Source: Candidatus Poribacteria bacterium
Lineage (GTDB): Bacteria > Poribacteria > WGA-4E > WGA-3G
Direction: 5' to 3'
Assembly (NCBI GenBank): GCA_963665235.2
Contig: CAXXLX010000001.1
Location: forward strand, 1,088,001 to 1,152,000
Length of the DNA: 64,000 nt
This document shows, one piece after another, positions 5,035 to 55,581 of this stretch. How positions within the stretch are numbered: the stretch's first letter is position 1; the number at the start of each line of letters is the position of its first letter. The notes under the pieces were generated by a model, which saw nothing but the letters and a program-made list of their open reading frames with translations, ran no database searches and was not told where the DNA came from. Position numbers and translations under genes: made by a program.

Positions 5035-5330
5035 AGATGTTAGCAACAAACCTCTTTTTCGGTGTTTTCCGCGTCCTCTGTGTCCTCCGCGATTCAGACA
5101 AAACACAGGCGAAATCCACCCTTCCCCTCTTCCATCCTTCCATTCTTCCATGTGCATTCTGACAAAAAAGGCACAGATGTTAGCAACAAACCTCTTTTTC
5201 GGTGTTTTCCGCGTCCTCTGTGTCCTCCGCGATTCAGACAACACAGGCGAAATCCACCCTTTCACCCTTCCCCTCTTCCATCCTTCCATCCTTCCATCCT
5301 TCCATCCTTCCATCCTTCCATCCTTCCACC
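5035..5330. repeat. Two ~140-bp direct repeats with 9-bp sub-repeats, followed by (TCCATCCT)n
   Basis: AGATGTTAGCAACAAACCTCTTTTTC...CCGCGATTCAGACAA at 5035 and 5175; related copies at 13175-13390 (inverted) and 51770-51860. Confidence 0.8.
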
Positions 5331-5475
5331 TCTCCCTGTGACAAAAACTGGACGCACCCGATAAATAATTTATCCCTTGCTATTTTTTTGTATATCGTTT
5401 ATCAAATCTTCCGCTACAAAACCCCCATGCTTTAGCTGGGGGATGTAGTAGCGGTGCATGAGTTGAAATTTTAAT

Positions 5476-5504
5476 TTGACTTTTCCTCAAAAATGGGGTA
5501 TACT
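5476..5504 (+). promoter_or_regulatory. tnpB promoter TTGACT-N17-TATACT
   Basis: Consensus-like hexamers with 17-bp spacer inside the IS left region. Confidence 0.6.
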
Positions 5505-5595
5505 CTATTTAATGCCTTAGCGGAGAATCTATAGACTTCTCCGCCCCTTTTTAGAGGCAGGAAACCGAAAACTTTTCAAGGCAGGATACCCTTAG

Positions 5596-6798
5596 ATGTA
5601 TACCACAAAATACAAACTTTTTCGTGCCCCGCGTAATCGTAATCTCAAGCGTTTAACGTGGGTGGCCCATGATGTTTGGAACTATTTTTTAGGTTGGCAG
5701 CGGACGCGCTATTCTCTTGGTCTTGCGTATATGTCGCTTCCTGAGATGTCGCGTGCCTTTACCGTCCTTAGGAACTCACATCCTGAAGTGTTTTCGCATT
5801 GGCGTGAGTTAGACTCTTGGGCGGCGCGTGATATACTGCGGCGTTTAGACACCGGGTATCAGCGTTTTTTTAAGTGTATTGCGAAGCGTCCGCCTAAGTT
5901 TCGTTCATGGCGCAAACCGTATTCATTCACAATGTCCCCCTCTGGCTATAGTTTCTATGGTGATAGGGTCCGTATAATGGAAAAACAATATCGGTTTAAT
6001 CTAAGCCGCGAGATAGTAGGTAATATTAAGACAGTCACTATCAAAGCAGATAGCGTTGGTGACTTCTATATGTGTGTTGTAACAGATGACACCGTATCTG
6101 AAATCCTACCTAAGACGGGTAGTGCTGCAGGATATGATTTCGGTATCAAAACGATGTTCACTTGTTCCGATGGCACAGAATATGAGTCTCCTGAGTTCTA
6201 TAAAACCTCTATGGCGGATTTGTCTGTGGCACAACATGCCCATGCTAAGAAAGTAAAGGGTAGCAACAACTGTGAGCGTTCCCGCTTAAATGTGGCGCGC
6301 AAACACCGTAAAATCAAGAGACAACGTGAGGATCATCATTGGAAACTCGCGAAGCGTTTTGTGCATGAACACGATGACCTCTGTTTTGAGACGTTGACTT
6401 TTGAGGGGATGAAACGGTTGTGGGGGTGTCAAGTTTCTGATATTGCGCCCTACTCGTTTCATCAAAAGTTGCAACATCAAGCGGTCAAACACGGTAAAGA
6501 GGTTCACTATATTGACCGTTTTGAACCGACTTCTAAGACTTGTAGCCACTGTGGACAGCGAAAACAGCAGCTGGACTTGTCTGTTCGTCAATGGTGTTGT
6601 TCTACTTGCCATCAGAAACACCATCGTGACGTTAACGCTGCGATAAATATTTTAAAGGTTGGGGCGTCAACCTTTGGATTAGAGGATGTCAGCCTTGCTA
6701 TTGCGAGCAGCCCTCGCAGACTTCACCCGAAGTCTATACCCCACAATCCGCACCAGAAAGCATGGGATTCACTTTCAAAAGAATCCCCCTTGCTTTAG
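5596..6798 (+). CDS. tnpB: RNA-guided endonuclease TnpB
   Basis: RuvC residues GYDFG / FETL / RDVNAA intact; CSHC...CSTC zinc ribbon. Confidence 0.92.
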   Translation: MYTTKYKLFRAPRNRNLKRLTWVAHDVWNYFLGWQRTRYSLGLAYMSLPEMSRAFTVLRNSHPEVFSHWRELDSWAARDILRRLDTGYQRFFKCIAKRPPKFRSWRKPYSFTMSPSGYSFYGDRVRIMEKQYRFNLSREIVGNIKTVTIKADSVGDFYMCVVTDDTVSEILPKTGSAAGYDFGIKTMFTCSDGTEYESPEFYKTSMADLSVAQHAHAKKVKGSNNCERSRLNVARKHRKIKRQREDHHWKLAKRFVHEHDDLCFETLTFEGMKRLWGCQVSDIAPYSFHQKLQHQAVKHGKEVHYIDRFEPTSKTCSHCGQRKQQLDLSVRQWCCSTCHQKHHRDVNAAINILKVGASTFGLEDVSLAIASSPRRLHPKSIPHNPHQKAWDSLSKESPLL

Positions 6799-6815
6799 CT
6801 GGGGGAGTATGTCAA
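6650..6815 (+). ncRNA. Predicted TnpB omegaRNA (reRNA) scaffold overlapping the tnpB 3' end
   Basis: Hairpins (AAAGGTTG..CAACCTTT; AGACTTC..GAAGTCT) ending at the right end; inferred from family knowledge, 5' boundary approximate. Confidence 0.5.
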
Positions 6816-53374: not shown

Positions 53375-54319
53375 TTACAGTAATTTTAGACACATAACCT
53401 CTAGGACCAATATTTTGTTAACGCGGGTGTTCTGAAGCAGCGTCTTTGCTTGAAAAACAGTTTTGATAGCTCGCTGGAGGCGCGAACGGGAGTAGCGAGG
53501 AACGAGGGTTTTAAGTTCCTCCAGGGTACTGACGTGCGTTATTAACTCCGTAGGTGCCCCTTGCTGCAAAAACAGAAGGTCTCGGTACCACGTTATCAAC
53601 TCGTCTAGGGTTTCCTGATTTTTTTCAAATTGTTCTGCCAATCGGAAGGCGGCTAATGGGTCGGTCTCCTTTAGGATTTCTGGAACGACCTCATTTTCAA
53701 GCATATCCCCTTCAAGTTGTGTGATAGCTTTTCCGACTAAACCGTTTACCATTCCCGCCACGGTGGCAGCCGTTTCTTTATCAACAGGAAATCGTTTCAT
53801 TAAGGCTTCGGTTAATTCGTCAAGGGGCATCGGATAAAATTGGAGAATTTGACAACGGGACCGAATTGTCGGCAGGATAACTTCAAGATTTTCTGTCAAC
53901 AAAATCAAAGTTGATGAAGCCGGGGGTTCCTCAAGTGTTTTAAGCAAGGAATTTGCAGCGTATTCATTCATCCGTTCCGCGTTGGTTAGAATGTAAACTT
54001 TCCGTGGCCCCTCAAGCGGTTGATAGATAATTTGCTGCTGTATTTCACGAATCTGATCGATTTTCATCTGTCCGCCGGCCGGTCGAACAATTTGCAAGTC
54101 CGGATGGTTCCCGTTTTTTATCTTCCTGCAAGGGAGGCATTCTCTGCACGGTGCAGTGCCCGCCATCCTTTGTTCACACAAAATCAAATTTGCGAAGTAG
54201 GCAGCGACTGTCTCCTTACCCACACCGGCTAGCCCGGCAAAGAGATACGCGCCAGCAACACGTTCCGAAGCGACAGCACTATGGAGCTGCTCTATAATGT
54301 TTTGATGCCCTATTATCAT
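53375..54319 (-). CDS. holB: DNA polymerase III subunit delta'
   Basis: IIGHQ, AYLFAG, C..C..C zinc module, HPD, ANSLLKTLEEP, TIRSRC; downstream of tmk; current ATG lies inside the inserted element. Confidence 0.92.
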   Translation of the reverse strand: MIIGHQNIIEQLHSAVASERVAGAYLFAGLAGVGKETVAAYFANLILCEQRMAGTAPCRECLPCRKIKNGNHPDLQIVRPAGGQMKIDQIREIQQQIIYQPLEGPRKVYILTNAERMNEYAANSLLKTLEEPPASSTLILLTENLEVILPTIRSRCQILQFYPMPLDELTEALMKRFPVDKETAATVAGMVNGLVGKAITQLEGDMLENEVVPEILKETDPLAAFRLAEQFEKNQETLDELITWYRDLLFLQQGAPTELITHVSTLEELKTLVPRYSRSRLQRAIKTVFQAKTLLQNTRVNKILVLEVMCLKLL

Positions 54320-54746
54320 AATATTCGGTGTCAAAACCCCCAAGCTTTAGCTGGGGGATGTAGACACCGCTAAAAACTTTGATTGCACACTAAACCTTTT
54401 AGACTATTTTTCGTTTAAATAGTTAGAGTGTACGGTTGCTATAGAGGGCAGTTACGCGCCTCATGATTAGACTTCCTATAGTGTAAAGCTCTAATGTCGT
54501 AGTCAGAAAGTGTAGCATGACAGTCGTTAGTAGGGAAAGACAGGTAATGCTGAAACCCGTTTGAACAATACGACTCAAAACAAATTTCACAAGGACACTT
54601 CGGTGTCGCAGTCGGGGTAGCGACTGTTGCAGTAGGCTTCTGTCCCTGGAGAACCGCTATAGGTTTTCTAAACAAGGTCGTTAATCGCACGAACGCTTTC
54701 GCATAACTTTGCGGAAGCCCCCTTGCTTTAGCTGGGGGTCTATCAC
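54317..54746 (+). mobile_element. Non-autonomous IS200/IS605-type element (430 bp, no transposase or tnpB)
   Basis: Follows TTAT; AAAA plus CCCCCAAGCTTTAGCTGGGGG left hairpin; GAAG plus CCCCCTTGCTTTAGCTGGGGG-TCTA-TCAC right end; removal restores holB MHNT-IIGHQ in frame. Confidence 0.85.
54435..54746 (+). ncRNA. Putative structured ncRNA inside the non-autonomous element
   Basis: GACAC-TTCG-GTGTC, GCAGTCG/CGACTGT, GAGAACC/GGTTTTC hairpins; long-range GTCGTA/TACGAC pair; boundaries approximate. Confidence 0.55.
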
Positions 54747-54775
54747 GGTATTGTGCATCTCTTTGTCCGTGAGTT

Positions 54776-55405
54776 TCAATTTGTCCGCAGTGATTTGATA
54801 ACTTTTTCCGTTTCTGTTAGGAGCATAAGGTGAATGTCATCAACGTCAAGTTGTGCATCGATTAGTTTGACCCGCTGTGGGTCCGCTGCTGCGATGGCTA
54901 GATACCCCTCCCTCACCTTTTCATGCGACGCTAACGCCTCAAGCTCTATGCGGGTAAGGGGTTCCGCTGATTCCCGTTTCCGCTGGCATCCAATATCTGG
55001 GGGCAGGTCAAGTAGAAATGTTCTGTCCGGGGTTAATCCGGCTGTGGCAATATGGTTTACCTGCTCTATAAGCGGACAGTCAATCCCCTTGCGATATCCC
55101 TGATAAGCGATGGTAGCATCGATGAACCGGTCGCAGATAACAGTCCGTCCAGCGTTGAGTGCCGGCTGGATACGCTCGGTGACGTGCTGGGCGCGTGCGG
55201 CAGCAATTAGCAGCAATTCGGTTACGGCTGCCATGTCGTGATGTGTAAAAAAGAGTTCACGAATCTGTTCGGACAGCGGTGTGCCGCCGGGTTCCCGCGT
55301 AACAAGAACATCTCCGTCGAGTGCTTCTGCTAATCGGTGTGCCTGCGTTGTTTTGCCAGCCCCCTCTACACCTTCTAATGTGATAAAAATTCCTCTGTGT
55401 TTCAT
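54776..55405 (-). CDS. tmk: Thymidylate kinase
   Basis: FITLEGVEGAGKTT, TREPGG, CDRF, AYQG; start set at MKHRG. Confidence 0.95.
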   Translation of the reverse strand: MKHRGIFITLEGVEGAGKTTQAHRLAEALDGDVLVTREPGGTPLSEQIRELFFTHHDMAAVTELLLIAAARAQHVTERIQPALNAGRTVICDRFIDATIAYQGYRKGIDCPLIEQVNHIATAGLTPDRTFLLDLPPDIGCQRKRESAEPLTRIELEALASHEKVREGYLAIAAADPQRVKLIDAQLDVDDIHLMLLTETEKVIKSLRTN

Positions 55406-55581
55406 TGTTTTAAAATGATACCATATTGTGCCAAACGTATCAAGCAAAATTTTCTAGGAATTTCAATTTTCTTGACATAAACATATATTCCATGCTATTA
55501 TAAAAAAACGGTTTAACGGTTTAGTTGTATTAACAGATTTAGGCAATTTGCTAAGCAGCAAGGAGCGGAAGTTCAAATCCA

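Follow-up and report, generated by a model that had tools for sequence, protein, structure and literature searches.

The locus and the element

The DNA considered here is a stretch of 64,000 nucleotides (nt) from a Candidatus Poribacteria genome (assembly GCA_963665235.2, contig CAXXLX010000001.1, positions 1,088,001 to 1,152,000 of the forward strand), called the window; plain positions refer to it, and positions prefixed C1 to C3 refer to contigs of the same genome (G000; 5.31 Mb in 4 contigs). In the region between a holB-like open reading frame (ORF; 53375..54343, minus strand) and a tmk-like ORF (54776..55447, minus strand) lies a protein-free element of the IS200/IS605 type, which is 429 nt long (54318-54746) and stands 3' of the pentanucleotide TTATC. 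Its minus strand holds ORFs of only 83 and 55 amino acids (aa), both without a Pfam match. The element is considered here as a candidate gene for an omegaRNA, the guide RNA of TnpB.

In IS608-type elements, a short guide sequence next to the hairpin of each transposon end selects the site of cleavage. The right end (RE) of the element carries the same hairpin as the left end (LE), followed by TCTATCAC, and ends at 54746; the cleavage site TCAC occupies 54743-46. The arms of the LE hairpin covary among copies (CCCCC/GGGGG versus CCCAA/TTGGG). An earlier reading of the window from its letters alone (the sequence-only reading) held that both ends obey the guide/cleavage rule and that their hairpins are almost identical to those of the tnpB element at 5403-6815. 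Comparison of the hairpins at 54337-57 and 54719-38 agrees with the latter, and the rule holds across the genome: in 28 of the 31 omega-domain matches described below (three degenerate ones were dropped), GAAT precedes the RE hairpin at 17/17 TCAA-type ends and GAAG at 10/11 TCAC-type ends, the eleventh also having GAAG, with the register shifted by 1. A T[TA]ATC motif stands upstream of 28 of 29 aligned full copies; the final C of TTATC may be part of the target or of the element. In one DNA run (X4), no contig joined 54317 to 54747, so that no empty site marking the exact left boundary was recovered.

Five full copies are present in the genome, two of them 100% identical and the others 96, 90, and 88% identical. 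Their flanks are unrelated (53 of 56 columns vary on the left and 59 of 60 on the right), homology starts and stops exactly at the element ends (alignment A1), and no direct repeat surrounds the copies, as expected of insertion without target duplication. Since the two identical copies occupy different sites, transposition appears to have been recent. Homologous protein-free elements occur in sister genera, and in all 29 collected copies an RE lies at the expected distance. The sequence-only reading had asked for further copies with the same ends, and these exist both in this genome and in its relatives.

The genome also encodes proteins that could move and use such an element. It has 44 matches to the TnpB zinc-ribbon family and 13 to the Y1 transposase family (Y1_Tnp). 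Three tnpA+tnpB elements and one further tnpB element have ends in common with the element: the LE of an autonomous IS605 copy (C2:340277-340326) is 100% identical to element nt 8-57 (50 nt), and the REs of the end-sharing IS605 copies are 85-93% identical to its RE. Pfam assigns Y1_Tnp (E 2e-34), OrfB_IS605, and a TNB domain to one of the tnpA+tnpB elements. The cognate TnpB (encoded by the element at C2:338524-340326) has 403 aa and, judged by motif, keeps the acidic residues of RuvC-I, II, and III (D-E-D) as well as the zinc finger; an intact TnpB, 75-80% identical, is found in 5/5 relatives carrying the element. The earlier proposal that the element is mobile in trans by means of TnpA is well served by the five copies in different flanks and by the autonomous tnpA+tnpB IS605 copies with the same ends. 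Six further ORFs of about 529-550 aa (C1:1060114, 872286, 1029596, 1045871, 1079999, and C3:3206) match the TnpB zinc ribbon more weakly (53-59 bits); they form a different, larger TnpB-like group and have no omega-domain match nearby.

A TnpB-type omegaRNA scaffold at the right end

The 3' part of the element has the layout of a TnpB-type omegaRNA scaffold (Table 1). Model R1, a covariance model of the 3' approximately 160 nt with 149 positions, has 31 matches in the genome at E<=0.01, each spanning the whole model. Fifteen of the 31 lie within 500 nt of a TnpB zinc ribbon, that is, at tnpB 3' ends, where they score 37-51 bits (E 1e-8 to 1e-12 genome-wide); the other 16 have no tnpB nearby. 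One of the tnpB-linked matches (6639-6813; 37.3 bits, E 1e-9 in a search of the window) belongs to the ordinary tnpB element of the window, which overturns the statement of the sequence-only reading that the RNA is unlike the omegaRNA of the local tnpB genes. The fallback interpretation offered in that reading, a long guide RNA with the right flank as its spacer, is now the best supported.

The scaffold contains a pseudoknot. The loop of stem 1, G(G/A)UAG, is complementary to CUAUC at positions -7..-3 of the element, and in family A (26 rows) the pairing switches with the type of RE: 24 rows have GRUAG/CUAUC and two have GACAU/AUGUC, the latter two with another RE type, ending GUAUGUCAA. Genome-wide, this complementarity is found in 12/12 TCAC-type and 15/17 TCAA-type R1 matches; the two exceptions have a small insertion in the stem-1 loop.

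Three elements (C1:3756632-3757078, which is copy d; C1:4052068; C1:3108742) have acquired small insertions that form G/C hairpins of the type GGGG(U)GAAACCCC / GGGAAACC. The insert of the one family-A copy measures 25 nt and lies in a linker, and the other two break the pseudoknot in omega stem-1 loops. A tiny mobile hairpin or repeated slippage could account for these insertions.

Table 1. Features of the element, with related features at other loci (window positions unless a contig or locus is named)
Feature	Position	Strand	Remarks
Target and presumed transposon-associated motif (TAM), TTATC	54313..54317	+	directly 5' of element; TTATC in 4/5 own copies, TTTTC in 1 (alignment A1)
LE	54318..54371	+	guide AAAA 54333-36; hairpin CCCCCAAGC-TTTA-GCTGGGGG 54337-57
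Outer inverted repeat of LE	CGGTGTC 54326-32 / GACACCG 54363-69	+	read from sequence
Spacer with internal promoter position	54372..54424	+	promoter degenerate in own genome; most variable interior part, 18/53 columns
5' domain, whole	54425-54607	+	183 nt: P1-P3 long hairpin domain, P5-P7 hairpin, P8
5' domain I	54425..54493	+	P1 54425-29 / 54488-92; P2 54437-44 / 54476-83; P3 54446-49 / 54458-61
Pseudoknot PKa	UGAUU 54464-68 with AGUCA 54501-05	+	internal loop of domain I with linker behind it; 3/5 pairs with double changes
5' domain hairpin II	54519..54578	+	P5 54522-27 / 54570-75; P6 54533-36 / 54555-58; P7 54541-43 / 54550-52; covariation in all three
P8, c(UUCG)g-type hairpin	54594..54607	+	4/5 pairs with compensatory changes; missing from tnpB-linked omegaRNAs, unaligned in the match 6639-6813
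TnpB-type omegaRNA scaffold	54608..54746	+	139 nt; assigned by model R1, pseudoknot, and layout
P9 = stem 1	54608-14 / 54621-27	+	loop GGGUAG 54615-20
P10a = stem 2	54628-30 / 54687-89	+	
P10b/c = stem 3	54635-39 / 54675-79; 54648-55 / 54662-69	+	
P11 = extra hairpin	54695-703 / 54710-18	+	
P12 = stem 4 = RE hairpin	54719-38	+	UUUA loop at -20..-17
Pseudoknot strand CUAUC	54740-44	+	pairs with stem-1 loop
Presumed guide segment	54747..54762	+	about 16 nt of right flank, antisense to 3' end of tmk-like ORF; presumed from omegaRNA anatomy
Co-resident tnpB omegaRNAs	C1:31454, C2:338524, C1:3154658, C2:434703; 6639-6813		IS605 group; 400-aa group (includes 6639-6813)
PF04018 leader	L165 446-1649; also L162, L167, L168	- (L165)	domain about 25 nt upstream of undecaprenyl-phosphate translocase-like gene
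Solo domain I copy	L170 1501-1666 (G012)	-	own promoter, then terminator-like hairpin and T run; downstream gene convergent
Further RNA-only families	C1:2583950, 1772712, 2603923, 3108742, 546642, 4312773, 3342257, 1018558, C3:14661; C1:491170, 1892179; C1:3013537; C1:1298510		

The flank that would serve as guide was compared with the rest of the genome. The 16-mer next to the window copy has no other genomic match at 0 or 1 mismatch. For four of the five own copies the flank 16-mer has no other match at 0 mismatches in the genome, and none after TTATC; one of these four has a single match at 1 mismatch, which lacks a TAM. The flank 16-mer of the fifth copy lies in an abundant genomic repeat. 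The absence of a TAM-adjacent second target for these 16-mers fits a homing guide rather than a regulator, and a regulatory, TldR-like guide was dropped as an explanation for this reason.

The repeat that adjoins this fifth, family-A copy (C1:646149) is itself very abundant, with a core CTTCTATAAA(C/T)ATATC at about 900 places in the genome (e.g., C1:807573-808423), often in arrays with a period of about 50 nt; the count is of 897 matches at <=3 mismatches to the flank of this copy.

RNA structure, strand, and promoter

The structure of the whole RNA was drawn by hand (66 pairs) and compared with 29 distinct full copies from three genera (alignment A2), all of which begin with AGAGUG at the presumed RNA start. 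Pairing is kept in 89.1% of cells, compared with 36-47% when the partners are slid along the alignment. Double (compensatory) changes affect 25/66 pairs versus 7-14 in the slid controls, and 0/500 shuffles reached the observed score. Eight of the 66 pairs are G-U in most sequences; the opposite strand is unable to form them, which argues for the + strand and agrees with the earlier remark on the direction of the G-U pairs. The element is judged to carry a structured + strand RNA under selection.

Most of the helices first picked out by eye stand. Covariation backs those at 54439-54481 (P2/P3), 54594-54607 (P8), and 54608-54627 (P9), and the helix at 54649-54668 is located within the variable hairpin P10c. 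The proposed pairing of GTCGTA at 54496 with TACGAC at 54569 gives way to that of AGTCGT (54522-27) with ACGACT (54570-75), which covariation favours instead.

The sequence-only reading had also pointed to sequence blocks reminiscent of large ornate noncoding RNAs of the ROOL type. These blocks and the size of the RNA are what speaks for a known family, whether ROOL or GOLLD, a minus-strand omegaRNA of the IscB type (HEARO), or the remnant of an IStron-type group I intron; PATEs (palindrome-associated transposable elements) with IStron ends exist in Clostridioides. Rfam 15 at gathering score reports nothing but two tRNAs in the whole window, and at E<=10 only four chance-level matches in 54200-54900, none of them to ROOL, GOLLD, HEARO, IS605-orfB, or group I; it reports nothing in the leader, solo, and relatives' loci described below. 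The missing covariance-model match rules out an identity with ROOL, GOLLD, HEARO, or group I RNAs, and the G-U pairs together with the direction of the promoter rule out an IscB-type reading on the minus strand. The architecture next to the guide is moreover of the TnpB type, so that membership in any of these known families is barely credible.

A σ70-like promoter precedes the RNA in 25/25 copies from relatives. These sites score 9-12 of 12 positions, often as TTGACA-17-TATAAT with TG, and 6-7 nt separate the end of their -10 box from the start of the RNA; a promoter scan gave a 12/12 site with TG in locus L146. Related copies (85-95% alike) occur in metatranscriptome contigs of only three runs, all from one study (X1-X3, with no more than 9-13% of the sampled words); these contigs cover 54312-54746 and neither flank.

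A separate promoter-like site (GCGACA-17-TATAAT, 10/12) lies at 54270-54298 (+), just outside the LE and reading inward. It may be due to chance, or it may compensate for a weak internal promoter by read-through transcription.

The degenerate promoter in this genome, the lack of an ORF alongside pieces derived from tnpB, and the weak thermodynamic z-scores of the subdomains would all suit a functionless internal-deletion derivative of a tnpB element, whose inherited structure is fading. Against such decay speak compensatory changes in 25/66 pairs over 29 copies and three genera and an interior far less variable than the ends or the spacer, as do consensus-like promoters in 25/25 relatives' copies and the recent transposition indicated by two identical copies at different sites. 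Decay is accordingly a very improbable account of the element.

The 5' domain

Upstream of the scaffold, 183 nt of the RNA form a second domain, with a long hairpin domain (domain I), a pseudoknot (PKa), a nested hairpin (hairpin II), and P8. Aligned separately (alignment A4), this 5' domain keeps pairing in 96.3% of cells versus 35-47% with partners slid and has double changes in 14 pairs versus 0-4, including 3/5 pairs of PKa. Among the five own copies it is the least variable part of the element, with 7/183 variable columns compared with 13/139 in the scaffold, 19/54 in the LE, and 18/53 in the promoter spacer. The covariance model R2, built on this domain, matches 74 places spread over 36/112 genomes of one family (f1) and matches 0/51 phylum-sample genomes outside it. 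At 35/42 loci examined, the omega domain follows directly behind the 5' domain; of the remaining loci, one belongs to a different PATE family and another is truncated where its contig stops.

The 5' domain is also found detached. Four genomes of genus g6 share one orthologous locus at which a gene of the PF04018 family is preceded by a promoter and the complete 5' domain, with neither an omega part nor IS ends. In genome G012, domain I occurs as a solo copy that resembles a small RNA gene (Table 1). Apart from this one orthologous locus and this one solo copy, the copies of the domain lie in PATEs. The PF04018 leader shows no alignment with a PATE left end upstream of its -10 box. A complete PATE relic is unsupported for this reason; the converse idea, that a PATE captured a host riboswitch, is likewise unsupported, and the apparent descent of hairpin II from tnpB argues for movement from transposon to host. 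The leader is possibly an exaptation of a transposon RNA module.

That descent appears from several comparisons. R2 weakly matches two cognate tnpB genes at the same place (21.4 and 20.1 bits; E 8e-4 and 1.6e-3 in 12.7 kb), a stretch encoding K-T-G-K-A-E just before the RuvC-I motif (21.4 bits at L122 2166-2283), and blastn gives an 18-nt match of 94% identity between hairpin II and the RuvC-I stretch of tnpB. In three tnpB groups of the genome, minimum-energy folding predicts this nested hairpin as well. The core motif of hairpin II, searched as a regular expression, has 17 copies in RNA-only elements of four families and is next to no tnpB 3' end. Hairpin II thus appears to descend from the RuvC-I coding stretch of tnpB, and the detached leader and solo versions would then derive from the transposon and not the reverse. 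The statement of the sequence-only reading that no tnpA or tnpB remnant is present is correct at the protein level, where tblastn of the cognate TnpB against the 29 copies gives a best E of 0.33, and fails at the level of RNA and DNA, where the hairpin matches the RuvC-I stretch of the cognate tnpB.

Within tnpB, the nested hairpin spans the codons P-K-T-G-x-A-x-G-x-D-x-G of RuvC-I (6097-6145 in the window; L122 2171-2223, minus strand). Its outer stems are built from different codons in the three groups, and single-sequence z-scores are weak (-1.3, -2.0). It may represent a functional RNA (or single-stranded DNA) structure inside tnpB that has been retained by the RNA-only elements.

The conservation of the 5' domain, its own covarying pseudoknot, and its occurrence without omega part or IS ends (the leader in four genomes and the solo RNA in G012) raise the question of whether this domain is the real cargo. 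It would then be an RNA with an autonomous function, for instance in regulation or in binding a protein or ligand, and would simply ride on a PATE. The omega part would owe its retention mostly to its overlap with the transposon end, and guidance of TnpB would be irrelevant or secondary. P9, P10, and the scaffold pseudoknot covary, however, although they lie outside what TnpA needs, and most loci keep the omega domain directly after the 5' domain. The detached versions look transposon-derived, given the descent of hairpin II, the four leader loci amount to one orthologous event, and the domain is confined to one family in the genomes searched. Taken together, these points make an autonomous 5' domain an unlikely main cargo.

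A model for the element

The preferred explanation is that the element is a non-autonomous IS200/IS605 element, or PATE, whose sole cargo is a stand-alone TnpB-type omegaRNA gene; on the comparisons presented here this is a strong probability. The element is probably moved by the TnpA, and its RNA used by the TnpB, of the co-resident IS605 copies. Strong constraint acts on the 5' domain, part of which appears to come from tnpB mRNA.

The cycle would begin with transcription of the + strand from the internal σ70 promoter, starting at about 54425 (AGAGUG). The transcript would cross the 183-nt 5' domain and the 139-nt scaffold, which overlaps the RE, and then about 16 nt of flank as the guide, a course with which the direction of the promoter and the G-U pairs agree. 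TnpA made by IS605 copies with matching ends would excise the element and insert it 3' of TTATC. The cognate TnpB (403 aa) would bind the scaffold in trans and cut the emptied donor site (TAM and flank), and recombination would restore the element there. The best guess for the 5' domain is a supporting role: with the omegaRNA no longer inside a tnpB mRNA, the domain may help this RNA to fold, to stay stable, to be processed, or to be loaded onto TnpB.

Several observations do not sit easily with this explanation. The tnpB-linked omegaRNAs lack P8 and differ at P11, so that compatibility of the RNA with TnpB is an assumption. Folding energy does not separate the strands (z -4.27 for the + strand and -4.82 for the minus strand), and single subdomains are not unusually stable (z +0.15 for domain I and -0.36 for hairpin II). 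The internal promoter of the own copies scores 7-8 of 12 only, and the promoter scan found no site inside the window copy. The metatranscriptome contigs give neither strand, ends, nor level, and DNA carry-over is possible, so they are not counted as expression. TnpA was found in just 3/5 copy-carrying relatives with the query used. Finally, the 5' domain accounts for more than half of the RNA while its proposed role is a guess, and its conservation exceeds that of the scaffold, which would not be predicted if the RNA were nothing but a guide.

A bolder proposal would extend the preferred explanation; it is rather doubtful at present. The RNA-only OMEGA elements of Poribacteria might be an evolving lineage of "RNA-gene transposons" and not just debris, with the 5' domain as a self-standing functional module composed of the tnpB RuvC-I hairpin and the pseudoknotted domain. 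This module might gate or boost maturation of the omegaRNA or its capture by TnpB, for example by out-competing the guide of the TnpB gene itself or by answering a cellular signal, and might be open to exaptation as a promoter-plus-leader for host genes such as PF04018.

At stake are the purpose of stand-alone omegaRNAs and the choice of RNA that a TnpB loads. The element provides an effector-less guide RNA with a second RNA domain more constrained than the guide scaffold, in a natural family diverse enough for covariation (the 74 places found with R2). Three questions become testable: whether the stability or processing of omegaRNAs, or their competition for TnpB, is controlled by 5' extensions; whether the RuvC-I coding stretch of tnpB genes contains a functional RNA hairpin; and whether transposon-borne RNA modules are domesticated as leaders of host genes. 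The family could also yield design ideas for compact TnpB guide RNAs.

Further RNA-only elements

At least four further kinds of protein-free IS200/IS605 elements are present in the genome, each with an LE, a TTGAC..TATAAT promoter, an RNA of 350-500 nt, and an omega-like 3' domain; one of these families has 9 copies. A PATE at C1:469802-470400 (L118) carries five tandem copies of a unit of about 31 nt (…AAGAACACAAACTGGAAGTTTATGCTACGAT…) upstream of its omega-like domain. In genome G013, a related RNA-only element of 370 nt (L038 197-1640) is interrupted by an insertion of about 1 kb with two ORFs (143 and 149 aa), which look like a split DDE transposase. In the window itself, the tnpB element at 5403-6815 is preceded, at a distance of about 70 nt, by a short tandem run of CCATCCTT units (5300-5335).

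Comparison with known systems

With ROOL, GOLLD, HEARO, IS605-orfB, and group I RNAs the element has in common that it specifies a large structured bacterial RNA, and some of these RNAs are linked to mobile elements; none of their covariance models matches it.

In structure, the scaffold resembles the omegaRNA of ISDra2, in which the loop of the first hairpin pairs just 5' of the guide, stem 2 encloses stem 3, and a UUUA loop occupies -20..-17 (Nakagawa et al. 2023, PMC10097598). The two RNAs are alike in the pairing of the stem-1 loop, in stem 2 around stem 3a/3b, in stem 4 with UUUA at -20..-17, and in having a region 5' of stem 1. They differ in the extra hairpin P11, which lies between stem 2 and stem 4 of the present RNA, in the length of the scaffold (139 nt versus 116 nt), and in the TAM, which is presumably TTATC here and is TTGAT in ISDra2. 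The 5' region of ISDra2 is tnpB coding sequence and dispensable, whereas that of the present RNA does not code, is structured, and shows the strongest conservation of all parts.

The omegaRNAs of the co-resident tnpB elements match R1 over its full length and follow the same logic of stem-1 loop and pseudoknot; the similarity of their REs to that of the element applies to the IS605 group. Unlike the element, they overlap an intact tnpB ORF and are without P8 and domain I, and their equivalent of hairpin II is found within the RuvC-I coding region, some 700 nt further upstream.

PATEs often encode omegaRNAs to be used in trans (Meers et al. 2023, bioRxiv 10.1101/2023.03.14.532601), and omegaRNAs that stand alone, lack effector and transposase, and have evidently been mobilised are known to act in trans (Altae-Tran et al. 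2023, PMC10691335). Because these two papers describe such a class, the element is filed as a stand-alone omegaRNA PATE. A literature search found neither 5'-extended stand-alone omegaRNAs nor Poribacteria TnpB elements described, and the supplements of Meers 2023 and Altae-Tran 2021/2023 may hold more. The element resembles members of the class in its IS200/IS605 ends, in the lack of a protein gene, in being multicopy beside effector-encoding elements, and in a scaffold that abuts the RE with the flank as guide; use by TnpB and mobilisation by TnpA in trans are presumed for both. It differs in its pseudoknotted 5' domain, in the dedicated consensus promoter of its relatives, and in the presence of several RNA-only families in one genome. 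Stand-alone mobilised omegaRNAs are thus a class already known, and the new part is the 183-nt conserved 5' domain.

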